From assembly GCA_026387235.1 (NCBI GenBank), contig JAPLMD010000054.1:11437-75436 (forward strand): DNA of 64,000 nucleotides, given 5' to 3'. The notes below the pieces were generated by a model. That model made no database searches. It was not told the origin of the DNA and was given only the letters and a program-made list of their open reading frames with translations. Positions within the stretch are counted from its first letter, which is position 1, and every line of letters begins with the position of its first letter. The position numbers and the translations under genes were made by a program. This stretch comes from Candidatus Omnitrophota bacterium. Lineage in GTDB: Bacteria > Omnitrophota > Gorgyraeia > Gorgyraeales > Gorgyraeaceae. Shown in pieces: positions 2,089-58,823 of the stretch.

Positions 2089-4419
2089 TTAATTGGATGA
2101 AATTTCCACTCTATCAAGTTCTTGTATGACATTAAAATCGCTGTCAGCCAAAGGCTTTGTTACTATAAAGCTGTCAAAAACCTTGGTTGTCTTTAATGCG
2201 GATATCTTTATGTTGTCTCTATATACGTCGAATATCTGGCCTTCTACGATACCATTGGCTTTGCTGAAATCGAGCCAGACATCCCTACTGGCTGCATCTT
2301 TGCCTATTACAGCTCCTGAGGTTTTCTCAACCATTAATTCTGAAGCAATTTTTAGACTGCCGACTTCCGGCGCAGGAATATCTGCGCTGGAAATATTTTT
2401 ATTTTCAGATTCACCAACCTCTTTTTTAACCGCTCTTGGCCCTTCTTCCGCCTGGCCTGAGCGTTTTGTTTCTCTTTGCAATCCTCTCGCTGCTGCTTTT
2501 TTATCCAACTCTAGATCTTGACTATATTCTGTCTCTTCTAATTTTACCTCTGCAGTTTTCAATGCGAGCGCTTTTTTTAACTGAAGCTTAAGCGCGTTAT
2601 TAACGTCTTCTAATGTTCTCTTCTCAAAATCAAATGAATTCGTTTTTAACGCATATTCTGCCTTAAGATTTTCCAATATATTAATTCGTGATTCCAAAAA
2701 TGACTTTTCCTTTTCTACTGCAGCTATCTCTTCGTAAAGCCGCATCTCTGTTTTTTTCTTTTCTTTATTCAAAAGTTCATATTCTTCCTTAAGTTTAGAA
2801 TCTGCGTTTGCAAGCGCAGAAATCTCTAACCTTAACTTTGCTTCAGATTCTTCTTTTGATTTCTCAGCAATAGCATGTTGGTCGCTAAACAAGGCTATTT
2901 TTTTATTTAACTCTGCTATATTGTCGTCTTTGGCCTTGCTTAAATTAGTTATGTCTGAATCAAGTCTAAATTTTAAATCTTCTTTCTCTTTATTCAAAGA
3001 AGATATTTCCGCCTTCAATTGAGATTCGCTGTCTTCTTTGGCCTTTTCCGATTTTTTAAGCTGGTCGCTCAGATAGGATATCTGACTATATAATTTTTGC
3101 TCTCCGTCTTCCTTATATTTGACTAAAGAAGAGATGTACTTTAAGTTTGATTCAGAGTCCTCTTTTTCTGCGCTTAGACTAACAAGTTTGGCGCCAAGAT
3201 CCGCTTTTTCTGTCTCTAATACAGAAATTTGAAGGCTCAATTTAGATTCGTTTTCCTGCTTTTCTGTATTCAAAGAAACAATCTGGCTATTCAAATCGGA
3301 TTTCTCTCTTTCCAAAACAGCTACTTTATTGTTAAGTTCCGATATCAGCTTTTCCTTGCCCTGAATCGCAGTAGCAGTTTCGGATCTTACTCTATTTTCG
3401 TCTTCTTTGCTTAATTTATCCAAAGCCTGCAATTGATTGCTAAGAGTTACTATCTGCGAGTTTAGTTTTAATTCGGAATCGTCTTTTTGTTTTGTCAGAG
3501 CTGCCAATTCCAGCTTTAATTTACCGCTGTTATCTTCGCTCTGCTTGATAAGGTTTGCGAGTTTTTGTTCAAGAGATTCTTTGTCCTTATTTGAAAACGA
3601 GTATTGGCTGCTAAGTGTTTTTATTCTGGAATTTAGCTGCGCTTCCGCGTTTTCTTTATCTTTAGCGAGGCCTGCGATCTGAGCGTTCAGTTTGGAATCT
3701 GAGTCCTGTTTTTCCTTTGCAAGGATGAAGAGTTTTGATTCAAGCTCGTCTTTTTGTTTTGTCAGAGCTGCTAATTCCAGATTTAATTTACCGCTGTTAT
3801 CTTCGTTCTGCTTGACAAGGCTTGCAAGTTCGGAAAGAAGCCTTTGTTCTGTTTCCCTTTGCGTCTGGGCATTTATTTTCTTGATATTCACAAGCTCGCT
3901 GCTCAGGTTGGCGGACAAACTATCTTTTTGCTTGTTTAATTCTATTACTTCCGACAACAATCTCGCATTTTCATTCTGCAAATCGCTCAGTTTGCTGTTT
4001 AATAATTGTTCTCTCTGCGAAGAAGGCGTTTCATGTTCCCCGGATATAAATTTTGATGCGCCAGCGGCTGAAACCACATCTGGAACTATTACCCTGTCTC
4101 CTATTTTTATTGCGAGATTTTTGTCTGTACTAAGAGACCAGGCCTCTGACATTTCAGGCTTTACATCCTTTATGACAAAAGTGGCGAGATATTCGGAACG
4201 CCTGTAAATCTCGACCAAGGCTCCCACTTTTACTTCTTTTTCGCCTAAATCAGTAAAAACAAAACCTGCCTTGTTAGCTGCGTGAAGGACAACGCCTTCC
4301 TTTGAGCCTTTTGCCTGCGCTGGCGGGACTAAACAAGATATGACAAGAAAACAAATTATAGCGAAAACGGCAGCGGTCGTATATGTTTTAACTATTCTGT
4401 TTAAAGGAATATTTAACAC
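2089..4419 (-). CDS. Large secreted or membrane-anchored coiled-coil protein (776 aa) with internal repeats
   Basis: N-terminal hydrophobic signal/anchor (AAVFAIICFLVISCLVPPAQA), a ~100-aa globular region, then ~600 aa of heptad-like K/E/L/S-rich sequence with repeated blocks such as SGKLNLELAALTKQKD. Confidence 0.6.
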   Translation of the reverse strand: MLNIPLNRIVKTYTTAAVFAIICFLVISCLVPPAQAKGSKEGVVLHAANKAGFVFTDLGEKEVKVGALVEIYRRSEYLATFVIKDVKPEMSEAWSLSTDKNLAIKIGDRVIVPDVVSAAGASKFISGEHETPSSQREQLLNSKLSDLQNENARLLSEVIELNKQKDSLSANLSSELVNIKKINAQTQRETEQRLLSELASLVKQNEDNSGKLNLELAALTKQKDELESKLFILAKEKQDSDSKLNAQIAGLAKDKENAEAQLNSRIKTLSSQYSFSNKDKESLEQKLANLIKQSEDNSGKLKLELAALTKQKDDSELKLNSQIVTLSNQLQALDKLSKEDENRVRSETATAIQGKEKLISELNNKVAVLEREKSDLNSQIVSLNTEKQENESKLSLQISVLETEKADLGAKLVSLSAEKEDSESNLKYISSLVKYKEDGEQKLYSQISYLSDQLKKSEKAKEDSESQLKAEISSLNKEKEDLKFRLDSDITNLSKAKDDNIAELNKKIALFSDQHAIAEKSKEESEAKLRLEISALANADSKLKEEYELLNKEKKKTEMRLYEEIAAVEKEKSFLESRINILENLKAEYALKTNSFDFEKRTLEDVNNALKLQLKKALALKTAEVKLEETEYSQDLELDKKAAARGLQRETKRSGQAEEGPRAVKKEVGESENKNISSADIPAPEVGSLKIASELMVEKTSGAVIGKDAASRDVWLDFSKANGIVEGQIFDVYRDNIKISALKTTKVFDSFIVTKPLADSDFNVIQELDRVEISSN
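3479..3831. repeat. Two ~85-bp near-identical direct repeats inside the coiled-coil gene (3479-3563 and 3747-3831)
   Basis: tcgtctttttgttttgtcagagctgcYaattccagMtttaatttaccgctgttatcttcgYtctgcttga occurs twice, ~268 bp apart, and encodes the repeated LELAALTKQKD coiled-coil block. Confidence 0.7.
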
Positions 4420-4879: not shown

Positions 4880-6316
4880 TCAAGCTTGAATTGTGTTCAA
4901 GGGCAATGTGAAAATAAACTTTGCGCCCCGGCCTTGTTCGCTTTCCGCCCAAATTCTTCCGCCGTACAATTCTACTATCTCCTTGGCAATAGACAGCCCT
5001 ATGCCCGTCCCGATTATTTCGCTGCGCGCTTTTTTCCCATCTGCCTGATAAAATTTATCAAATACCTTCTTGAGATCATCCTGAACTATGCCGCTGCCCG
5101 TATCCTGGACGCTAATCTTAATCTCCTTGTTCTCCTGATCGAAACCCGCTTCTATAATTATACTGCCATTATTTGGAGTAAATTTAACAGCATTCCCCAC
5201 GAGGTTATTCAAAACCTGGTTTATTCTATTCGGATCTGCATATAAATCTGAAATGGGCTCATGGATATTTTTTTCCATCCTGATAGATTTTGTGCTTGCC
5301 CATGTGCCAAAACTCTTGAGAGATTCGTCAATCATGTTCTCTATTGAAAAAAGTTCACGCCTCAATTCCATTTTGCCTGCTTCTAGCTTGGAAAGGTCTA
5401 AAAGGTCATTGATAAGAAGGCTTAATCTCTTGAGATTGCGCTCAGCTATGCTTAAAAATTGTTCCTGATTTTTGCTGACAGGCCCCGCGGCATTGCTGAG
5501 AATAAGGGTTATGGATTTTTCGATAGCTACGAGAGGTGTCCGCAACTCATGAGAAACGCTGGCTACAAAATTTGATTTCAATTGATCCAATTCTTTTTGC
5601 TTAGTGATATCGCTCAAAACAGAAACCATCCCGACCGTATGACCGTTCTCATTCTCTATGACCGCGCTAGAGGCTCTTAATATCTTTTTGGTTTCGTCAT
5701 GCTGGCTTATGACCTCTATTTCTTTGCCTTCGGAGCCGGGCACATTTTTTATCAAAGATATCAACTGCTCTTCTTTTAAATTCTCCATGATAGGCCTGCC
5801 TATTTTATCATTTTTCGAAACCCCTAAAAGCCTCTCTGCAGCGGGGTTCATCATAATAACCTTGCCTGATGAATCCACAACCAACAGGCCTTCTGCTATG
5901 CTTTTTATTACCGCCTCTGTCTGTTTCTTATTAACCAGCTCCTTTTCATATTTACCCCACGCGACTTCTTCGTTCTGCGTCTTTTCTTTGATAACTGATT
6001 CGTATTTCCTGCTTAATTCTTGCGTATGCAGGCTGATCTTCTTATCTAATTCCTTATTAAATATATCGGAAACAACCTTGGTAACCTGTTCGCAATCCTT
6101 TTCTGAATCAACTATATTCGTCAACTCATCATATATAACACGCTCTAGCGGCTCTTCGACAGAGAGATCTCTATCGAGATATTTTATTCTTTTTTTATTT
6201 TTATCTAATGCTTTTTTTGAATGATCCGACAGGTTGGAGAAATATACCAGCAGAAATGCGATTATTATACTTAAGGTAGCTGTTACTACGTATACGGATA
6301 CAAGGTAAGAAGACAT
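4880..6316 (-). CDS. Sensor histidine kinase (TM, PAS, HisKA, HATPase_c)
   Basis: N-terminal TM helix, PAS-like region, H-box SHELRTPL, N/G boxes (VGNAVKFT, GTGIGLSIAKEIVELYGG). Confidence 0.8.
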   Translation of the reverse strand: MSSYLVSVYVVTATLSIIIAFLLVYFSNLSDHSKKALDKNKKRIKYLDRDLSVEEPLERVIYDELTNIVDSEKDCEQVTKVVSDIFNKELDKKISLHTQELSRKYESVIKEKTQNEEVAWGKYEKELVNKKQTEAVIKSIAEGLLVVDSSGKVIMMNPAAERLLGVSKNDKIGRPIMENLKEEQLISLIKNVPGSEGKEIEVISQHDETKKILRASSAVIENENGHTVGMVSVLSDITKQKELDQLKSNFVASVSHELRTPLVAIEKSITLILSNAAGPVSKNQEQFLSIAERNLKRLSLLINDLLDLSKLEAGKMELRRELFSIENMIDESLKSFGTWASTKSIRMEKNIHEPISDLYADPNRINQVLNNLVGNAVKFTPNNGSIIIEAGFDQENKEIKISVQDTGSGIVQDDLKKVFDKFYQADGKKARSEIIGTGIGLSIAKEIVELYGGRIWAESEQGRGAKFIFTLPLNTIQA

Positions 6317-6429: not shown

Positions 6430-6663
6430 TTACATATTGGCTGATGCTTCCTGGGCCAGAGGCAAGATTGCCTGGACTTCGTCTTTGGTCATTCTCCCGA
6501 GCTTTGCAAACCTGAACGCGCCTTCCTGGTCCCTGTTTTCCCTCACTATCTGTAATTTCTTAGGGCCGTTATTGTAGGAATGGACGCTCACGGTGATTTT
6601 CCCATCATCATTTTCATAAGATTTAGCAAATACTTCCTTATCAAGACTTGCATCGTACGGCAT
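6430..6663 (-). CDS. Small hypothetical protein (77 aa)
   Basis: ORF with RBS gaggagg 6 nt upstream, preceded by the conserved two-hairpin leader element. Confidence 0.4.
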   Translation of the reverse strand: MPYDASLDKEVFAKSYENDDGKITVSVHSYNNGPKKLQIVRENRDQEGAFRFAKLGRMTKDEVQAILPLAQEASANM

Positions 6664-6667
6664 GTTT

Positions 6668-6737
6668 CCTCCTCAAATTTGCAAAGCAAATTTGATCCCG
6701 AGCCGCTCTTATACTCCAGTATATGCGGCGAGGGACC
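6668..6737 (-). promoter_or_regulatory. Conserved two-hairpin leader element, copy 1 (directly upstream of the RBS of the 77-aa gene)
   Basis: Minus strand reads GGTCCCTCGCCGC, a ~20-nt AT-rich stretch, GGCTCGGGATC, then CAAATTTGC-ttt-GCAAATTTG, then GAGGAGG and ATG. The first and third blocks are complementary (11 of 13 pairs). The second hairpin is a perfect 9-bp inverted repeat. Confidence 0.6.
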
Positions 6738-6742
6738 TTTTT

Positions 6743-7933
6743 TTACTCTGTTAGACCAGCTACAAAGCCTGACGCCCATGCCCAGGCAAGATTGTACCCG
6801 CCTCGTTCGCCATTTACATTCAGAATCTCGCCTGCGAAATAAACGCCTTTTTTTAATTTTGATTCGAGAGTAAGTTCCTTGACCTCTCCTGTATCTATCC
6901 CGCCTGCCGTAAACTCTGCTTCGTTCCAACCTCTTGTTCCTATTATATCAAATCTTTTGTCTTTTAGCATCTTTACTATTTTTTCAATATTTGCCCCCCT
7001 GAATAAATCCCTGAAAATAAGGCTGAATTTATTGGGCAATATCCCTATCATTAAATTTTCTGCTGCGAAACCTTTTTGGATCCTGTTTTCAATCTCTTCT
7101 CTAAGCTTTAGCGCGTCAATAAAAGGCACCATATCGATCGAAACGATTACGCCTTTTTTGCGAAGCCTGTTTATGGCTATCGAAACATCCCCGCTCACGT
7201 CCAATATGGCAGTGCCGGACAATCCGTATTTTGTGAAAAGCAATTCTCCTTTCGCTTCTTTTTTTATTTTACCATCTATTACGCTTCTTGCAATACATTG
7301 TATTTTCTGGCCCTGAAGCAGGTGGCAAAATTTGTCTTTTACCAAAAGCGGGACAGCGTTTGGGACAGGCTCTATGATCTTATGGCCGAACGATCCGGCT
7401 AAAGCATAGCAACTCCCGTCAGAGCCAAGGCTCGGATAAGTCTTTCCGCCTCCTGTTATAATAACCCAATCGCCTGATATAGTTTTGCCGCTCCTGGATT
7501 TTACTATAAATCCTTTGGCTGAACCGGCAATACTATTTACTTCAAAGCCAAACTCTATGGGCATCTTTAAATTTTTAAGCTCTTCTTCTAAAACCTTTAA
7601 AACGCTGGATGACTGGTTTGTAACGGGAAAAAGCCTGTCACCTTGCGAATATAACTTCAGCCCAAGCTTATTAAAAAATTTCTCTATATCATCCCGGCCG
7701 CCGAATTTGGAAAATACACTTTTTACAAGGCCTCTTGCTTCTGGATTATAATGCGTCTCGCTTAAATCTTTATTGGAAATATTGCATCTTGCTGCGCCTG
7801 AAATAAGTATTTTCTTGCCGAGCCGCGGCATCTTTTCGCATATTATAACATCTTTACCGCTGCGCCCGGCGCTGATAGCCGCAGTTATTCCTGCTGCTCC
7901 GCCTCCTATAACCGCAATATCAAATTTTTGCAT
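6743..7933 (-). CDS. HI0933-family FAD flavoprotein (BaiN/aminoacetone oxidase-like NAD(FAD)-utilising dehydrogenase)
   Basis: N-terminal FAD fold DIAVIGGGAAGITAAISA; length and overall pattern match the HI0933 family. Confidence 0.7.
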   Translation of the reverse strand: MQKFDIAVIGGGAAGITAAISAGRSGKDVIICEKMPRLGKKILISGAARCNISNKDLSETHYNPEARGLVKSVFSKFGGRDDIEKFFNKLGLKLYSQGDRLFPVTNQSSSVLKVLEEELKNLKMPIEFGFEVNSIAGSAKGFIVKSRSGKTISGDWVIITGGGKTYPSLGSDGSCYALAGSFGHKIIEPVPNAVPLLVKDKFCHLLQGQKIQCIARSVIDGKIKKEAKGELLFTKYGLSGTAILDVSGDVSIAINRLRKKGVIVSIDMVPFIDALKLREEIENRIQKGFAAENLMIGILPNKFSLIFRDLFRGANIEKIVKMLKDKRFDIIGTRGWNEAEFTAGGIDTGEVKELTLESKLKKGVYFAGEILNVNGERGGYNLAWAWASGFVAGLTE

Positions 7934-21734: not shown

Positions 21735-22205
21735 TTACGCCCTTCTGATATCTTCTTCTTTTATAATCTTGATCAGTGTTCTTTCGCCGTCTGAATTTTT
21801 TAATGAATCTCTGAAATACTTGTCTTTTAATAATTTCGAGATACGGGCCAGCGCCTTGAGATGCGGGCCTGAAGATTCTACAGGAGCTAATAGAAGGAAA
21901 AATATGTAGGCAGGCTCTCCATCTAATGAATCAAACTTTATGCCGCTTTTAGATATGCCAAAAGCTCCTATAAGCTCGCTCACATATTCACATTTTCCAT
22001 GAGGTATGGCAACGCCCTGGCCGATACCAGTCGAACCAAGGGTTTCTCTGTTTAAAAGCACTTTTACAACAGCGTCTTTGTCTTTAGGCTTGAGCTGGCC
22101 TGATTTAACCAAGAGTTCTATGAGCTCCTTTATAACGCTATTTTTGTCCTGGGATTTTAAATCCGCTGATACTGCCTTCTCGTTTAAAAAATCGAGTATG
22201 TGCAT
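21735..22205 (-). CDS. ptsN: PTS EIIA(Ntr)-type protein (nitrogen-regulatory IIA)
   Basis: EIIA-fructose/Ntr fold with GIGQGVAIPHGK active His; 156 aa. Confidence 0.8.
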   Translation of the reverse strand: MHILDFLNEKAVSADLKSQDKNSVIKELIELLVKSGQLKPKDKDAVVKVLLNRETLGSTGIGQGVAIPHGKCEYVSELIGAFGISKSGIKFDSLDGEPAYIFFLLLAPVESSGPHLKALARISKLLKDKYFRDSLKNSDGERTLIKIIKEEDIRRA

Positions 22206-22210
22206 CTGTT

Positions 22211-22278
22211 CCTCCCAAATTTGCGAAGCAAATTTGATCCCGAGCCGCCCCTATACCTACATATATGCGGCGAGGACC
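22211..22278 (-). promoter_or_regulatory. Conserved two-hairpin leader element, copy 2 (upstream of the ptsN RBS)
   Basis: Minus strand: GGTCCTCGCCGC, AT-rich stretch, GGCGGCTCGGGATCA, CAAATTTGC-ttc-GCAAATTTG, then GGGAGG and ATG. Same architecture as copy 1. Confidence 0.6.
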
Positions 22279-22435
22279 TATTTACCTGCTAGCTTTATTT
22301 TTTTCTCTATCACACCTAATATTCTTAATTCTTTGCCCCTCGCGACACACTATTCGTTCGGCGTTCGTTCGTTTCGAACCCCTAAATTCACTATTAATGG
22401 TGAGCAAGGTCGCCTTCGGCGGCCGCGTCGAACCA

Positions 22436-22456
22436 TGGAGCGGGAGACGGGGTTCG
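22436..22456 (-). other. 21-nt exact duplicate of the tRNA-Gly 3' end (tRNA fragment / att-like scar)
   Basis: tggagcgggagacggggttcg is identical to 22602-22622 (3' acceptor and T-arm of tRNA-Gly). It sits in a GC-rich spacer ~145 nt downstream of the intact gene. Confidence 0.6.
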
Positions 22457-22601
22457 GCGCCCTTCGCTTCGGCCTCGTCCAGAGGCCTCGGCACTTCCTC
22501 AGACATTACGTCCTCGGTCGCTCAGGGTCGGCCACTCGCCCTTGAAATCCTCCTATTCGTCGTATTTCAAAACAGGGCTCTCTTCGAACCCCTTAAAAAT
22601 C

Positions 22602-22676
22602 TGGAGCGGGAGACGGGGTTCGAACCCGCGACCTTCTCGTTGGCAACGAGAAGCTCTACCACTGAGCTACTCCCGC
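22602..22676 (-). tRNA. tRNA-Gly (anticodon GCC)
   Basis: Reverse complement folds as a 75-nt cloverleaf: acceptor gcgggag/ctcccgc, anticodon loop ttGCCaa, T-loop ttcgaac, encoded CCA. Confidence 0.85.
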
Positions 22677-22702
22677 GGACATTTATTTTTCTCCATGTAT
22701 TC

Positions 22703-22840
22703 TCAGTCCCGAGTCGCCCTATTTTTTATTTATCTGCGACGAGGGACAAACTAAAGTATCCTTAACTATCTTTTTGGTCCCTCGCGACTATATATAACAG
22801 ATATTGGTCGTTCAGGATCAGTTCTGCCTTCGGCAGAACT
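22703..22840. repeat. Two copies of the conserved hairpin element in inverted orientation (22703-22747 and 22776-22840), between tRNA-Leu and tRNA-Gly
   Basis: tcagtcccgagtcgcc-[AT-rich]-gcgacgagggac, then 28 bp, then ggtccctcgcgac-[AT-rich]-ggtcgttcaggatca-agttctgcc-ttcg-ggcagaact. The stem halves carry compensatory substitutions relative to copies 1-3: GTCGC/GCGAC instead of GCCGC/GCGGC, and GTCCC/GGGAC instead of GGTCC/GGATC. Confidence 0.55.
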
Positions 22841-22924
22841 GGTGCGAGAGGAGGGAGTCGAACCCTCAAGGGTCTCCCCACTAGCTCCTAAGGCTAGCGC
22901 GTCTGCCAATTCCGCCACCCTCGC
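22840..22924 (-). tRNA. tRNA-Leu (anticodon TAG), long variable arm
   Basis: 85-nt cloverleaf: acceptor gcgaggg, anticodon loop ctTAGga, variable stem-loop, T-loop ttcgact, encoded CCA. Confidence 0.8.
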
Positions 22925-22946
22925 CTATATCTGTTTCTGCGGTCCT

Positions 22947-22966
22947 GGTACTCCCAACAGGATTCG
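22947..22966 (-). other. Near-exact duplicate of the tRNA-Lys 3' end (tRNA fragment)
   Basis: tggtactcccaacaggattcg versus the tRNA-Lys 3' end tggtacccccaacaggattcg (one mismatch). It is followed by ttcggcgc as in the tRNA-Gly fragment, so the two spacers are themselves homologous. Confidence 0.55.
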
Positions 22967-23091
22967 GCGCTTTGCCCTTCGGGCAAAGTCGGCCATTCGC
23001 TCTGCTGTCGTCCGCCAATATTCTTGGCAGACTTTTCCTCGCTTCGCTCGGCGCAGAGCTCTATTCGAATCCTGTAACCTGAATAACATTG

Positions 23092-23167
23092 TGGTACCCC
23101 CAACAGGATTCGAACCTGTGACCTTATCATTAAGAGTGATCTGCTCTACCAACTGAGCTATGGGGGC
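23092..23167 (-). tRNA. tRNA-Lys (anticodon CTT)
   Basis: 76-nt cloverleaf: acceptor gccccca, anticodon loop ctCTTaa, T-loop ttcgaat, encoded CCA. Confidence 0.8.
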
Positions 23168-23228
23168 ACAAACGTTAAGCCTAAATGATATCACAGGTTA
23201 AAAACTTCGTCAATAATTTTAATGTATA

Positions 23229-23295
23229 GGTCCCTCACGACTAGATACAAAAAACTATGGTCGTTCGGGATCAAATCCGCCTTTGGCGAGGTCCT
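23229..23295. repeat. Copy of the conserved hairpin element between tRNA-Arg and tRNA-Lys
   Basis: ggtccctcacgac-tagatacaaaaaactat-ggtcgttcgggatca-aatccgcctttggcgaggtcc, matching the GGTCCC/GGGATC and CGAC/GTCG stem halves. Confidence 0.5.
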
Positions 23296-23350
23296 TCGAA
23301 TACTTCCTATTCGGTCGTATTCTCAGGATCAATTTTTGCTTTGCAAAAAT

Positions 23351-23427
23351 TGGCGCGCCCGGGGTGAATCGAACACCCAGCCTACTGGTTCGAAGCCAGC
23401 CGCTCTATCCATTTGAGCTACGGGCGC
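23351..23427 (-). tRNA. tRNA-Arg (anticodon TCG)
   Basis: 77-nt cloverleaf: acceptor gcgcccg, anticodon loop ctTCGaa, T-loop ttcgatt, encoded CCA. The hairpin atttttgc-ttt-gcaaaaat lies immediately 3' of it. Confidence 0.85.
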
Positions 23428-35939: not shown

Positions 35940-36239
35940 TCACTGCATCAACTGATAATAGTTTTTCAAAGAAGATACGCTGCTGATCAGCATTACACTT
36001 AAAAAATAAGTCAGGACAATGACAATAACGCTTACCCATATCTTTCTTTTAAGTGTAAAACGCGGATTAAGCCAGAAAAGAGGCAAGGCAAACGGCCCGA
36101 CGCATAGAAGCGCAGTCACGAAAGTAGCCATGCTGAAATACCATTTGGTTTTTTTCTGTTTATTCAGGACCTCTCCGCAATACCTGCACTTTACAGCTTC
36201 GTCTTGTATCTCTTCAGCGCAATAAGGACATTTTTTCAT
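35940..36239 (-). CDS. Zinc-ribbon membrane protein (~99 aa, hypothetical)
   Basis: [25 protein letters not shown] zinc ribbon followed by two TM helices. I take the start as the ATG at 36237-36239, downstream of the leader element and RBS GGGAGG, not the longer ORF in the track. Confidence 0.5.
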
Positions 36240-36244
36240 TTTCG

Positions 36245-36314
36245 CCTCCCAAATTTTGTGAAACAAAATTTGATCCCGAGTCGCCATAGTTTTTACCATC
36301 GGGCGGCGAGGGAC
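36245..36314 (-). promoter_or_regulatory. Conserved two-hairpin leader element, copy 3 (divergent promoter region, upstream of the zinc-ribbon/glpK operon)
   Basis: Minus strand: GTCCCTCGCCGC, AT-rich stretch, GGCGACTCGGGATCA, CAAATTTTG-tttca-CAAAATTTG, then GGGAGG and ATG. No upstream same-strand gene, so it must lie in a promoter or 5' UTR. Confidence 0.6.
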
Positions 36315-36376
36315 TTTTTTCTATTGTACTATATACATATTTTATATTAAAGCAAAATATGATATATTAAGTACTT

Positions 36377-51228: not shown

Positions 51229-51352
51229 GCCATATGAGGCAAAAAAAGTCAAACAAATTCGAAGAATTTGCTTGATCCTGAGGCTACGACAAAAAAGGAG
51301 TAGCCGAAGGATCTGAAGATGATATAATTTCTATAGTATCTGGGAAACTAAA

Positions 51353-52507
51353 CTATAAAGAAGATATATCTGTAAGAAATTTTGCTTTAAGCATTCCTTC
51401 ATCCCATTCCCCCTGCGGAGTGGAATCCCAAACAATGCCGCCTCCTATTCCTATTTCCCCTGAGCCACTACTGATTAAAAGCGTGCGGATAGGAATGTTA
51501 AAAAACATATCTTTATCAGGGGTGATATATCCGATAGCGCCCGTATAGATCTTCCGCTCTTCTTTCTCAAGTTTTCTTATAATCTCCATAGCGCGCATCT
51601 TCGGGGCCCCTGTAACAGAACCGGATGGAAAAAGCGAAGCGAATAGTCCGTAAAGAGCTATGTCCTTATCTACACGGCCCGTTACAGTAGAAGTCATCTG
51701 GCAAAGCGTCGCGTATTTAGCCACTTCGAAAAGTTTAGGCGCTCTGATATTCATCCCTACTCTCCCAAGGTCATTTCTGAGAAGGTCAGCTATCATCACG
51801 TTCTCAGCCCTGTTTTTCTTATCATATTTTAAGCAGAATGGGGCTATCAAATCAGATATCATATTATTACCTCTAGGCCACGTTCCTTTCATTGGCTTAG
51901 TAACTACATGGCCGGATGTTTTCTTGATGAACATTTCAGGTGAAAGAGAAAGTATATTGAACTCATCTGTCTCAATGTATGCCGGATAAGGAACAGGCTG
52001 CTCTCTTAGCAGTTTAACATAAAAAGACAGCGGGTCGCCCTTGAAATTAAACAACAATTTGATGCAATATGTAATCTGATACACATCTCCTCTTGCAATA
52101 TAATCACGTATAGCGTGAATATTAGAAGAATAGTCCTTATACGAAATATTTAATCTAAGTTCTTTTAAGCTATTTTGAAAAGGCGGGTTTTTGATGCTAA
52201 TCTTATCGCGTAAGGGAGTTTTGTATACCCCCATATAAATAAGCGGAAAACTGTATGTTTTATCTTCCAGCAATCTTTCTTCAAAACAATATCCAGCTTC
52301 GTATGAAAAGAAACCTGCCGCATAATATCCACGCTTGAGCGCAGATTCGATATCCCTGAAACAAGCTGTAAACGATGAAGGATTATTGCAGGATATGATA
52401 AATTCCGGATCTTGGAATAAAATCGGCTTTTTTTCGAATTGGATTAATACTTTCATAACCTTACGGAAGGTCTGGGTGCCCTGCGTAAAAGCATGGCTGA
52501 AGGTCAT
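51353..52507 (-). CDS. pabB: Chorismate-binding enzyme (aminodeoxychorismate synthase component I / anthranilate synthase-like), short form
   Basis: Conserved C-terminal chorismate-binding motifs (GAPKMRAMEII, GAIGYI, GGGIVWDS). Confidence 0.7.
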   Translation of the reverse strand: MTFSHAFTQGTQTFRKVMKVLIQFEKKPILFQDPEFIISCNNPSSFTACFRDIESALKRGYYAAGFFSYEAGYCFEERLLEDKTYSFPLIYMGVYKTPLRDKISIKNPPFQNSLKELRLNISYKDYSSNIHAIRDYIARGDVYQITYCIKLLFNFKGDPLSFYVKLLREQPVPYPAYIETDEFNILSLSPEMFIKKTSGHVVTKPMKGTWPRGNNMISDLIAPFCLKYDKKNRAENVMIADLLRNDLGRVGMNIRAPKLFEVAKYATLCQMTSTVTGRVDKDIALYGLFASLFPSGSVTGAPKMRAMEIIRKLEKEERKIYTGAIGYITPDKDMFFNIPIRTLLISSGSGEIGIGGGIVWDSTPQGEWDEGMLKAKFLTDISSL

Positions 52508-57363: not shown

Positions 57364-58149
57364 TTAACCTCCTCTGGAAAGCTTCTTGATCAAATCTTTG
57401 GCAACCTTTTCGCCAGCAAGAAGCATTCCGCCAAATATCGGCCCCATCCGCGGACCACCGAAAACCGCATTTGCGCACATGCCACAGACATATAAACCGG
57501 AACAAACTTCCTTTGAATTTTTCACAATTGTTTCTTCTCCCAACTCCGCCCACATGGATTCCTCTCCCAAAGTTTTTCCGGTTCTAGTCTTAAGCCTTAT
57601 CCCAGACTTTCTTTCAACAATACGAGTTACTTCCGCCGGGTGGCCTGTCGCATCCACAACGACTTTAGCACGCATAGTAATTGGGTCAACGTGCAAGTTC
57701 GCCATTTCAACCGCAGTCCAGTTCAATACTAAACCCACCACTTTTTTACTCCGCACCATTACGTCCTCAACACTCATCAGGTTAAAAATTTTCAACCCTG
57801 CCTTTATTGCTTTAGAACAAATAGTTGATACTGACTCTACGGAATCCGCTAAATAATAACCGGGTTCATAGCGTCTGCTTTTAATGCCAAATTCCTCGAG
57901 AATGCCTTTAGCCTTATCCTGCACCACTATTTCATTAAACATGATCCCGCCACCCCACATGCCACCGCCAACCGAAAGCTTCCTTTCAAAGAGTACTACT
58001 TTTTTCCCTGCCTTAGCCAGATAATAACCACATACCATACCAGCAGGGCCTGCTCCAACGATAGCGACATCAACGTCAAGCGCATCAATTAACTTGCTGC
58101 TATATGATTCAATGATAGCCTTGGAAATTTTGATTTCATCTAACTGCAT
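57364..58149 (-). CDS. thi4: Thi4-family thiazole synthase (archaeal/eukaryote-type)
   Basis: [29 protein letters not shown] fold plus conserved Thi4 core; 261 aa; preceded by a TPP riboswitch. Confidence 0.8.
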
Positions 58150-58199: not shown

Positions 58200-58352
58200 A
58201 TAAAACAAAAAACCCTTATGCCAATTGCATAAGGGTTCTACACACTAACTTCCTTCCCTCCGCTGGCATTATCCAGATCAGGTTATTAGGGTAATTCGCT
58301 TTGCACCTGAAGGATGCGTGCGAAACTCTCAGGCCGTTATACGACCTCCCCC
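58200..58352 (-). promoter_or_regulatory. TPP (THI-box) riboswitch with intrinsic terminator
   Basis: Minus strand contains GGGGAG ... CTGAGAG ... ACCCTAATAACCTGATCTGGATAATGCCAGCGGAGGGAAGG (THI-box consensus), then hairpin AACCCTTATGC-aattg-GCATAAGGGTT, then TTTTTTGTTTT, then the RBS of thi4. Confidence 0.85.
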
Positions 58353-58823
58353 AATGTTATATTGTCTAAATTATACTAAAGAGCACTTAAGAAATCAAAC
58401 AAAATTTAAACTAAGTAGACAACCAGAAAGATTCTATTCAGAGAATTTCCTCTGGAGTTTCTATAAGCGAGGAAAGCGCTCTCTATATAAGAGAGGAATT
58501 GGCCAAATATTCGGATATTCTCGCTGATTTAGAGAGGCCTCCTACACAGAGAGCTGAAATGACTATTTTACCGACGGGAACAAACTGCTAACGCCCTAAC
58601 CATCGCAAACGTTAGGAGATAAAGCGCTCCGGCAATCGATATCCGTCGGGGCGTTGTCACAACTCATTGCAGCACAATGAGTTAGAAAGCTGGGGTCCCT
58701 CTCGTATGAGCCGAGGGGAAACCTCTCTGATTTACACAGGCTAATTATATACGCAATACTTCACTATATCAAGAATATTTTGGCTTTAGAGAGGGATTTT
58801 ATGGCGAATTACTGGCCTGGTGA

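Follow-up and report, generated by a model that had tools for sequence, protein, structure and literature searches.

A short repeat made of two hairpins occupies several spacers in a 64,000-nt stretch of DNA from a Candidatus Omnitrophota bacterium (NCBI GenBank assembly GCA_026387235.1, contig JAPLMD010000054.1, positions 11,437 to 75,436 of the forward strand). This whole stretch is called the window, and positions are those of the window; L-numbers (L004, L185, etc.) denote the loci or contigs of relatives that were compared with it. On the minus strand, the element lies directly upstream of a gene for a 77-aa protein, of a ptsN-like gene, and of the zinc-ribbon gene of the glpK operon, and further copies are located in a tRNA array. 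An initial annotation of the window had described it as a structured 5' leader that regulates three particular units: a nitrogen phosphotransferase system (N-PTS)/S-adenosylmethionine (SAM)-cycle operon, the glycerol operon, and a small open reading frame (ORF). Here, the element was found to be gained, lost, and replaced as a discrete 65- to 72-bp unit in Candidatus Omnitrophota. It is probably a lineage-specific, non-coding interspersed palindromic repeat, similar to repetitive extragenic palindromic (REP) sequences and miniature inverted-repeat transposable elements (MITEs), which is tolerated because it folds on itself.

Structure of the element and its copies in the window

Read on the minus strand, each of the three leader copies consists of a first hairpin (H1), which runs GTCC(C)TC-G, 4 to 5 variable base pairs, an apex of 14 to 20 nt, the complement, and C-TC-GGGAT, and a second hairpin (H2) of the form C-AAAT..hairpin..ATTTG. 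At zero gap, these are followed by a Shine-Dalgarno (SD) sequence, GGAGG or AGGAGG, then 4 to 5 nt and an ATG. The foot of H1 is formed by the pairs G.T, T-A, C-G, C-G, and C-G and leads into a 2x2 internal loop of TC opposite TC, above which stand a near-invariant G-C pair, the variable pairs, and the apex. H2, directly after H1, is a perfect AT-rich palindrome, C-AAAT..TTY..ATTT-G. The whole unit, an optional A-run plus H1 and H2, measures 65 to 72 nt. The first and third blocks of the element do pair, as the initial annotation stated, but the copies keep the non-Watson-Crick TC/TC loop and the G.T closing pair within this helix. The leader position beside the ribosome binding site was also correct for the three copies, but the distance of about 6 to 10 nt given for it was not, as H2 touches the binding site with zero gap.

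Copy 1 (6674-6742, minus strand) is the full inserted unit between the TAA stop codon (6743-6745) of an HI0933-like gene and the SD of the 77-aa gene, with the A-run AAAAAG at 6737-6742, H1 at 6695-6736, and H2 at 6674-6694. It scored 66.2 bits (match 6674-6739) with the covariance model (CM) described below, and its RNA fold has an energy of -28.4 kcal/mol (z = -3.5). The SD AGGAGG (6668-6673), a 4-nt spacer, and the ATG (6661-6663) of the 77-aa gene, together 6661-6673 on the minus strand, lie outside the element. In copy 2 (22216-22277, minus strand; 58.5 bits, match 22216-22280), H1 (22237-22277) has a GTCCC foot that is one C short, H2 is at 22216-22236, and the SD GGAGG (22211-22215) of the ptsN-like gene (ATG at 22203-22205, minus strand) abuts H2. 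Copy 3 (36250-36314, minus strand; 80.1 bits, match 36250-36317) comprises H1 at 36273-36314 and H2 at 36250-36272 and is likewise abutted by the SD GGAGG (36245-36249) of the zinc-ribbon gene, whose ATG is at 36237-36239 on the same strand.

The copies in the tRNA array are related to the leader copies, as had been proposed, but the elements at 22776-22840 and 23229-23350 correspond to the reverse complement of the leader copies and are flush with tRNA 3' ends. On the plus strand, a reverse-orientation copy at 23288-23352 (66.3 bits) has an apex of type B (TCCTATTCGGTC) and, with the end of its H2, extends into the CCA of the minus-strand tRNA-Arg (23351-23427). In tandem with it, a second reverse-orientation copy (23227-23285, plus strand; 46 bits) has a shortened H2, TCGCC-TTT-GGCGA. 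A further one (22774-22841, plus strand; 61.6 bits) has the fully covaried H2 CAGTTCTGCC-TTC-GGCAGAACTG, which extends into the CCA of the minus-strand tRNA-Leu (22840-22924). On the minus strand, a solo H1 (GTCCCTCGTCGC...GCGACTCGGGAC) without H2, at 22707-22746 and about 30 nt upstream of tRNA-Gly, scored 29.7 bits over model positions 5 to 44 only and looks like a decayed or partial copy. An eighth copy, absent from the initial annotation, was detected at 51250-51315 (minus strand; 43.2 bits, E = 3.5e-9), again with a type B apex (CTCCTTTTTTGTCG). It begins about 38 nt past the stop codon of a gene at 51353-52507 and is about 90 nt away from the next ATG (51159). A T-run follows its H2 and resembles that of an intrinsic terminator; the orthologous site in L004 holds a different hairpin.

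Covariation of the two hairpins

The CM (R1) was built on a seed alignment of 42 sequences (A2), which included copy 3 and the window copies at 22774-22841 and 23288-23352, and the whole window was searched with it without filters. All coordinates in the initial annotation were verified, and its seven copies were recovered at 30 to 80 bits, with overall E values quoted for them of 1e-13 to 1e-18. Besides the copies named above and their partial or opposite-strand overlaps, no independent site in the window was better than E = 0.15. An exact composite pattern matched only copy 3 within the window; thus, regular expressions and the CM were used instead.

In the 42-sequence alignment, 97.0% of the cells were paired, against 83.0 ± 0.7% in shuffles, and both sides had changed at 15 of the 20 pairs, against 7.5 in shuffles. 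The covariation score was 0.377 (0.107 when shuffled), a value that none of the 500 shuffles attained. When the partner was slid by 1 to 3 columns as a control, pairing fell to 26 to 53%. The inner sequence of H2 was free to vary while remaining paired (TCCGCC/GGCGGA and TTCTGCC/GGCAGAA, for example). In the deep variant L015, the foot GCCCC..GGGGC co-occurs with the H2 ends GAAT..ATTC, so that the foot and the closing pair of H2 covary. Only the helix foot and the ends of H2 have conserved nucleotides, and the apex, 10 to about 40 nt long, falls into unrelated subfamilies. Of what had been proposed for the element, the architecture of two hairpins, the compensatory changes, and selection on secondary structure are real.

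The minimum-energy RNA fold consists of the two hairpins; z ranges from -1.7 to -3.5 among the leader copies, and the tRNA-spacer regions reach about -4.3. For copies 1 and 3, the minimum-energy fold has an unpaired SD; for copy 2, part of the SD is paired in this fold, and the centroid has it free.

The absence of a named RNA family, noted at the outset, was upheld. With Rfam 15 at gathering thresholds, the window gave only four tRNAs and a thiamine pyrophosphate (TPP) riboswitch and nothing on the element. In E-value mode, nothing relevant appeared on the element regions up to E = 10. In loci where unidentified sequence follows the element, Rfam gave tRNAs only, together with an RNase P RNA elsewhere in L028. 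Full-text literature searches for Omnitrophota RNA motifs or repeats and for the literal sequences returned neither a description of the element nor a match to its sequence.

Distribution in Omnitrophota and docking on Shine-Dalgarno sequences

Contigs representing one genome per species were scanned with the pattern GTCCCTCG-N20-40-CTCGGGATCAAA, which is strand neutral and specifies nothing past the first three A's of H2. At least 104 loci matched. Among the matches listed, about 70 loci came from many Candidatus Omnitrophota metagenome-assembled genomes (MAGs), often with several per MAG, and the remaining ones were high-GC chance or coding matches. A scan of viral contigs gave one chance match, without H2, in a contig of 61% GC. 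The CM found 98 matches in 517 kb of pattern-scan loci and 43 in 256 kb of loci picked by protein only. From the latter figure, about 1 match per 6 kb in a sample enriched for a tRNA array in which copies are clustered, the repeat probably accounts for 1% of these genomes, as an order of magnitude.

An SD and a start codon followed 54 of the 76 unique copies; this and the counts for SD-type copies in this paragraph refer to the matches listed. The SD motif was GGAGG in 46 of the 54 SD-type copies, the gap between H2 and the SD was 0 nt in 49, and the spacer from the SD to the start codon was 4 to 7 nt in most. More than half of the SD-type copies (28 of 54) began -1 to 13 nt past the stop codon of an upstream gene on the same strand. 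When the element starts at the upstream stop, the entire intercistronic spacer is therefore the element plus the SD. A positional count over the 70 nt upstream of 56 copies gave a single signal, an A-run at -6 to -1. At SD sites, the orientation of the element is locked to the direction of transcription. The flank on the H2 side begins with G throughout, as GGAGG, the +1 G of a tRNA, or the reverse complement of CCA, and no fixed tetranucleotide target could be defined there in the copies compared.

The downstream genes have no common theme. They encode EF-Tu, DnaK, RpsB, RplS, RpoA, GAPDH, RibH, MoxR, and GuaB-like proteins and, equally unrelated, XseB, rubredoxin, NrdR, GreA, P-II, YebC, and small membrane proteins. 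The element is present in many copies per genome in dozens of Omnitrophota MAGs, and the placement of these copies relative to genes is highly nonrandom, yet it is generic rather than gene specific, which does not support a dedicated leader.

Copies at the ends of tRNAs and tmRNA

Copies were also located 0 to 2 nt from the mature ends of stable RNAs, always with H2 towards the RNA gene. Forward copies stand at the 5' ends of tRNA-Val, Asp, Leu, His, Gln, and Gly and of a tmRNA, and reverse copies stand at the 3' ends of tRNA-Ser, Arg, Lys, Leu, Gly, and Val. Flush contacts occur in L100, L057, L026, L098, L049, L093, L017, L019, L015, L092, L123, L126, and L144 as well as at tRNA-Arg and tRNA-Leu of the window. 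In L100, tRNA-Val (2871-2946) is bracketed by elements on both sides (2792-2870 and 2946-3023). The spacers of the Arg-Lys-Leu-Gly array vary from 0 to 776 nt among relatives and are 0 to 3 nt in some close relatives. Since tRNA spacers can shrink to 0 nt, the flanking elements are dispensable for tRNA maturation.

The array itself, tRNA Arg(TCG)-Lys(CTT)-Leu(TAG)-Gly(GCC) with the PTS EIIA-2/ptsN-like gene (22602-23427 in the window; L105 to L184 in relatives), is kept down to about 57% aa identity, and repeat insertions make its spacers vary from 0 to about 780 nt. A sigma-70-like promoter, TTGACG-N17-TATCAT, is found inside the array at about 23185-23213 (minus strand), just upstream of tRNA-Lys; thus, the array may not be a single transcription unit. 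In addition, modules of 146 to 166 nt follow tRNA-Lys and tRNA-Gly (22946-23091, 22436-22601, and probably 22330-22435, all minus strand). Modules of the same type are present in L045/L060 and many of L105 to L184 and recur across Omnitrophota relatives. At their start, the 5' half of the T-stem of the tRNA itself is copied (..GGGGTTCGAA / CAGGATTCGAA); at their end stand the 3' half of the T-stem, the 3' strand of the acceptor, and CCA, which for Gly amount to an exact repeat of 21 nt. Their inserts are mutually homologous (gagagcYctg ... cgaRtggccgac ... gcgccgaa) and fold with z = -6.1 for Lys and z = -1.4 for Gly; the Rfam family RtT gave only 17.9 bits (E = 1.8). These modules resemble a small element placed within a duplicated T-loop, or else RtT-type tRNA-operon repeats.

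Empty and filled alleles

The HI0933-like gene and the 77-aa gene form a conserved pair across relatives. In the window, their junction reads cagagTAA(AAAAAG-GTCCC...AAATTTG)AGGAGGAAACATG, with the insert in parentheses, and in L185 (88% aa identity), it reads cagagTAAAGGAGGAAACATG. The junction is also empty in L186, L190, L191, L192, L193, and L188 (97% down to 70% aa identity); all seven distinct empty relatives (70 to 97% aa identity) read TAA(A0-5)|RGGRGG, with nothing inserted. L194 and L195 (99% protein identity) have a different small palindrome at this junction, and the site was without the element in 9 of the 9 relative contigs examined. The SD region of the 77-aa gene, AGGAGGAAACATG, is identical in the empty alleles L185, L186, and L191; judging from these sequences, the SD and start codon are older than the insertion. 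By parsimony, the window lineage appears to have gained the 69-nt unit, including the A-run, exactly between the stop codon and the SD.

The palindrome at the stop|SD junction of L194 (about 240-279) and L195 (about 361-400) is a unit consisting of GGGAACAGGCATGCCTGTTCCC followed by TACATAAT or TACAATAAG (-10-like). This unit is also present in L045 just upstream of the element at 2578, before EF-Tu. In these genomes, small palindromes in general seem to settle at the junction between stop codon and SD. The 77-aa protein (6430-6663, minus strand) has no Pfam match and 436 homologues at E <= 1e-5, named, where source names were available, as hypothetical proteins of Omnitrophota MAGs or, at JGI, as "predicted transcriptional regulator." Its gene, which nearly always directly follows the HI0933-like flavoprotein gene, encodes a conserved small protein.

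Similar results were obtained at the other sites. Over syntenic genes, the window is 75 to 86% identical to "Ca. Omnitrophica bacterium CG1_02_40_15." At the site of copy 3, the window reads atagaaaaaa(65 nt)GGAGGCGAAAATG, and the empty allele of L004 reads atagaaaaaaCAGGGAGGCGATATG (also given as atagaaaaaaCAGggaggcgatATG), with flanks that are 83% identical; the zinc-ribbon/glpK site is empty in MNVP01000053. L021 is filled where L024 and L042 are empty, with flanks of 81 to 95% identity. For ptsN, 80 metagenome loci encoding a ptsN relative were sampled from the protein, which makes this sample free of ascertainment bias. An SD-flush element upstream of ptsN was found only in L112, L116, and L130, and the site, reading ..ctttaaaGGAGGaacagATG, was empty in 15 of the 18 informative relatives at >=85% aa identity. 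These alleles demonstrate that the element is a discrete insertion unit. Three of the comparisons (the junction before the 77-aa gene, copy 3, and L021) are independent and show homology in the flanks to the left and right.

Turnover, subfamilies, and nested repeats

The apices of H1 fall into classes that recur between genomes (ATATACGGGGGTATAAGG-like, YGATGAAAAAYAAGG-like, CCGCCACAGAACTTTGGCGG, and TTCGCCACCTTTGGTGGCGAGA). The type B apex loop, CTCCTATYSGTCG, is found mostly beside tRNAs. At orthologous RibH sites, the flanks are 84 to 86% identical, yet the apex classes differ and the elements are only 74% identical. The ptsN copies of the window and L112 have the left flank and H2 in common, with unrelated apices (76%). 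The family also includes partial and decayed copies and inverted doublets of H1 (L021, 1300-1427). A separate 47-nt MITE is nested in the H2 loop in L051 (3043-3176 and 4796-4921, minus strand), L041 (about 5300-5376, minus strand), L104 (about 193-300), and L116 (about 361-490), in the last of these upstream of ptsN. Its terminal inverted repeats (CCCCGCTCTTTT...AAAAGAGCGGGG) are 12 bp long, and its target duplication (TTTCAC or CTTCG) measures 5 to 6 bp.

Strand tests and excluded signals

The structure is conserved without strand bias. In SD-type copies, the H1 core has a folding energy of -9.21 kcal/mol on the transcribed strand and -8.94 kcal/mol on the other (Wilcoxon p = 0.2). G.U pairs make up 24 of 436 pairs in the forward direction and 17 of 435 in the reverse, and H2 has none in 526 pairs. 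Single-stranded DNA (ssDNA) folds are equal between the strands (-14.3 versus -14.0 and -15.8 versus -15.9 kcal/mol). A strand test of G.U against A.C revealed no asymmetry, with an A.C count that consists partly of recurrent C.A or bulged A in "GAC" variants. Asymmetries of sequence are held in nearly all copies, namely, the G.T pair of the foot and the TC/TC loop, which reads CGAG/CGAG on the other strand. Tandem G.A in such a context is stable. The invariant asymmetries of the foot point to sequence-specific recognition of the folded strand, for which the sequence allows RNA and DNA alike.

Several known signals were considered and rejected. For SD-type copies, a promoter is excluded by the lack of -35/-10 or -24/-12 boxes upstream, where there is only the A-run, and by the covariation of H2. 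An intrinsic terminator is excluded since GGAGG follows H2 instead of a T-run, which was found after H2 only at 51250-51315; in one L036 copy, a separate terminator-like hairpin with its own T-run follows. Anti-SD pairing, between CCCUC of the H1 5' arm and GGGAGG, would reach at most 4 bp, and no alternative fold is conserved across copies. On inspection, a K-turn formed by the tandem G.A of the reverse strand lacks the 3-nt bulge.

Interpretation as a probable interspersed repeat

The reading as a REP/MITE-like repeat draws on the insertion-deletion alleles, patchy occupancy, flush docking, conservation of structure without strand bias, subfamilies, and apex replacement. It fits better than a gene-specific leader because the element is generic, multicopy, and dispensable, is gained as a unit and replaced, has no strand bias, occurs in both orientations, and decays. 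The H2 end would land against a G-rich functional boundary, which may be the 5' side of an SD, position +1 of a tRNA or tmRNA, or, when inverted, the CCA end of a tRNA, and the element would be cotranscribed with its neighbors. Since both hairpins are self-closing, the 5' and 3' ends of the insert would meet, so that the stop codon and SD stay close and the SD or tRNA remains unpaired; this would explain why insertions survive before EF-Tu, DnaK, RpoA, and S2. Spread probably occurs at the DNA level, through folded single strands or copy-to-copy conversion, and the conserved asymmetric foot may be the feature recognized by a trans-acting factor. Any role at the RNA level, such as end protection, processing, or insulation, would be secondary. 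Two compatible reasons for docking can be proposed. G-rich sequence may be targeted, with purifying selection acting in addition, as the only G-runs of AT-rich spacers would be SDs and acceptor ends. The dumbbell may also bring an RNA-level benefit by keeping stop codon and SD neighbors and the SD or tRNA unpaired.

A number of observations weigh against the repeat. No transposase or other mobilizing factor was identified. A phmmer search of 3665 ORF pieces from about 1 Mb of loci gave no match to an IS200 TnpA/YafM-like Y1 protein, although this search was weak, with approximate queries and genome fragments. The clean junctions TAA|..|AGGAGG and aaaaaa|..|GGAGG have no target-site duplication, and terminal inverted repeats are not visible, as the AAAAAG-GTCCC and ATTTG ends are not inverted copies of each other. 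The lock between orientation and transcription at SD sites is a further difficulty, and a target preference at the DNA level alone hardly accounts for the flush contact with mature tRNA ends, which could reflect RNA processing. Some orthologous copies exceed their coding flanks in conservation (97% versus 88% and 98% versus 93 to 96%). No two copies of one genome are identical in their variable parts, and there is no sign of a recent burst. The foot (GTCCCTCG / CTCGGGATC) and the pairing are retained in almost every copy while the apices diverge, which looks like selection on each copy and not on master copies only.

Alternative explanations

One alternative is a host-beneficial module of RNA punctuation or stability, in which the dumbbell, once transcribed, would mark boundaries generically in polycistronic RNA, with host benefit as the primary reason for its maintenance and mobility only distributing it. 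We regard this as possible but clearly less probable than the repeat. The module could be an RNase III-like site on the irregular H1, the target of a hairpin-base cutter at H2, or a two-way exonuclease barrier, which would stabilize the 3' end upstream of it and the 5' end downstream and shield the SD or tRNA from misfolding. The exact, orientation-locked placement at SDs and at mature tRNA and tmRNA termini favors such a module, as does the SD being free in the minimum-energy structures of copies 1 and 3 and in the centroid of copy 2. Retention of the foot and pairing in nearly all copies, with covariation even in L015, the better conservation of some orthologous copies than of their flanks, and the copies before the highly expressed tuf, dnaK, rpsB, rplS, rpoA, and gap are also in its favor. 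However, the element is dispensable at all bias-free sites tested: 3 of 18 relatives carry it before ptsN and 0 of 9 at the 77-aa site, and tRNA spacers can be 0 to 3 nt in close relatives. The lack of G.U strand asymmetry, with no G.U at all in H2, would be unusual for a constraint on RNA only, and the two orientations beside tRNAs mean that no single RNA sequence is presented.

A bolder proposal, which we advance tentatively and to which we give a modest but real probability, is a new targeting system, in which the unit recognizes the G-rich boundaries of functional RNAs (SDs and the acceptor ends of tRNAs and tmRNA) and is installed there with nucleotide precision, by itself or by the host. 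It might be boundary-seeking mobile DNA with a novel enzyme. It might also be phylum-wide RNA punctuation, in which a dedicated factor bound to the GUCCC-UC-G/C-UC-GGGAU foot processes or protects most transcription units of these tiny-celled bacteria.

It is improbable that the element is a folded single-strand recombination site, like attC or the ends of IS200/IS605 or REP elements, which a tyrosine or HUH enzyme inserts next to G-rich targets. The parallel lies in H1, whose 5-bp outer helix, 2x2 spacer, 5-bp inner helix, and apex of 10 nt up to a long extra stem correspond to the R-box, UCS, L-box, and VTS. Conserved mismatches in otherwise palindromic DNA, equal ssDNA folding of both strands, insertion without target-site duplication, and location between ORFs point the same way. 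On the other hand, the GTTRRRY/RYYYAAC core and the GTAG/CGTC tag are missing, the copies flank core housekeeping genes and not cassette arrays, and no integrase or Y1 transposase was found in the (weakly) searched 1 Mb or so of loci. Such a site would in any case be a submechanism of the favored repeat and not a separate identity.

A signal in double-stranded DNA, that is, a sigma-70 or sigma-54 promoter or an operator whose CAAAT-N13-ATTTG is read by a dimeric regulator or nucleoid protein, is very doubtful. H2 is a perfect palindrome with the conserved outer half-sites CAAAT/ATTTG, and the distance of the element from RNA starts is fixed. In copies 1 and 2, where H2 is CAAATTTGC, GG-N10-GC with TTGC resembles a sigma-54 -24/-12 core, but this string is lost in most H2 variants and was rejected as a sigma-54 signal. 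The inner part of H2 varies as long as pairing is kept, which is the signature of a hairpin and not of an operator or -10 box, and no conserved -35/-10 lies upstream. Furthermore, about half of the copies stand 0 to 13 nt past an upstream stop codon, inside operons, and reverse copies would fire antisense into tRNAs.

Least probable of all, and in conflict with the distribution, is the riboswitch-like leader of the initial annotation, sensing a signal to control the N-PTS/SAM-cycle operon, the glycerol operon, and the small ORF: its position in the 5' leader directly before the ribosome binding site and its conserved structure would suit this role, but the hypervariable apex of 10 to 40 nt offers no conserved pocket, unrelated genes follow at more than 50 sites, the same genes lack the element in close relatives, copies also stand beside tRNAs and tmRNA, even reversed, and the SD of copies 1 and 3 is not sequestered, with no conserved alternative fold and no Rfam match at E = 10.

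Comparison with known repeat families

The favored repeat resembles several known families. REP sequences, BIMEs, and REPINs (RAYT; Proteobacteria) are likewise extragenic imperfect palindromes, short (20 to 40 nt per hairpin) and present in high copy number, whose stems covary and whose mismatches are conserved. They also occupy cotranscribed intercistronic or 3' regions in both orientations, form inverted doublets and subfamilies, and make up roughly 1% of a genome. In contrast, the element has no GTAG/CGTC 5' tag, and its foot starts with (A/G)GTCCC, or with CAAAT when the other strand is read. Its two hairpins are unlike and come in fixed order; it docks H2 first and flush on SDs and tRNA termini in a gene-locked orientation, and is confined to Omnitrophota; no RAYT was identified in a weak search of genome fragments.

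With MITE-like sequences (Correia/NEMIS, ERIC, RUP, BOX, and the small dispersed repeats of cyanobacteria), the element shares presence/absence units of 50 to 150 bp in 5' UTRs or between cistrons, RNA hairpins, mutual nesting, and the possibility of altering mRNA processing or stability. It differs in lacking matching terminal inverted repeats and target-site duplication and in its nucleotide-exact position relative to the SD or tRNA end. To our knowledge, such exact placement has not been reported for MITE-like families, and the text searches gave no instance. Integron attC sites also conserve structure over sequence, with an outer box, an unpaired spacer, an inner box, and a variable terminal structure, lie between ORFs, and act as folded single strands. 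Unlike them, the element has no R'/R'' core (GTTRRRY; none in 76 copies) or extrahelical bases, has an additional hairpin, H2, and flanks housekeeping genes and tRNAs of conserved synteny instead of promoterless cassettes near intI.

Mycobacterial MIRUs are intercistronic repeats within operons, oriented with translation and located between a stop and the next start codon, but they are tandem direct repeats with small coupled ORFs, without hairpins or tRNA association. The RNase III hairpins of phage T7 and ompA-type 5' stabilizers, irregular hairpins with an internal loop between cistrons or 5' of the ribosome binding site, provide an analogy for punctuation; these are site specific, of single orientation, and not mobile repeats. 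The element thus fails the tests for the REP tag, for MITEs, and for the attC core, yet it has the general logic of all three families. What sets it apart is the exact docking of H2 on SDs and tRNA or tmRNA termini and the fixed order of two hairpins.

Candidatus Omnitrophota is largely uncultured, and no description of its non-coding genome features was found in the literature searched. Gene callers, operon and UTR predictors, and RNA-motif searches will meet this repeat, as it is located at translation-initiation regions and tRNA ends. Nucleotide-exact docking is unusual for interspersed repeats and calls for a new mechanism of target recognition or a generic function at RNA boundaries. In addition, the empty and filled alleles provide a natural experiment on the effect that a structured insert of about 70 nt between stop codon and SD has on translational coupling. 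The element can conveniently serve as a phylum marker and as a strain-typing locus, and the Arg-Lys-Leu-Gly/ptsN array is also useful for strain typing.

Other features of the window

The TPP riboswitch (RF00059) mentioned above is at 58238-58362 (minus strand), upstream of a gene at 57364-58149, and scored 61.2 bits against a gathering threshold of 54.3. A 100-nt direct repeat (3464-3563 and 3731-3830), 89% identical and 267 nt apart, lies inside a 776-aa ORF (2089-4419, minus strand), which suggests an internal protein repeat.

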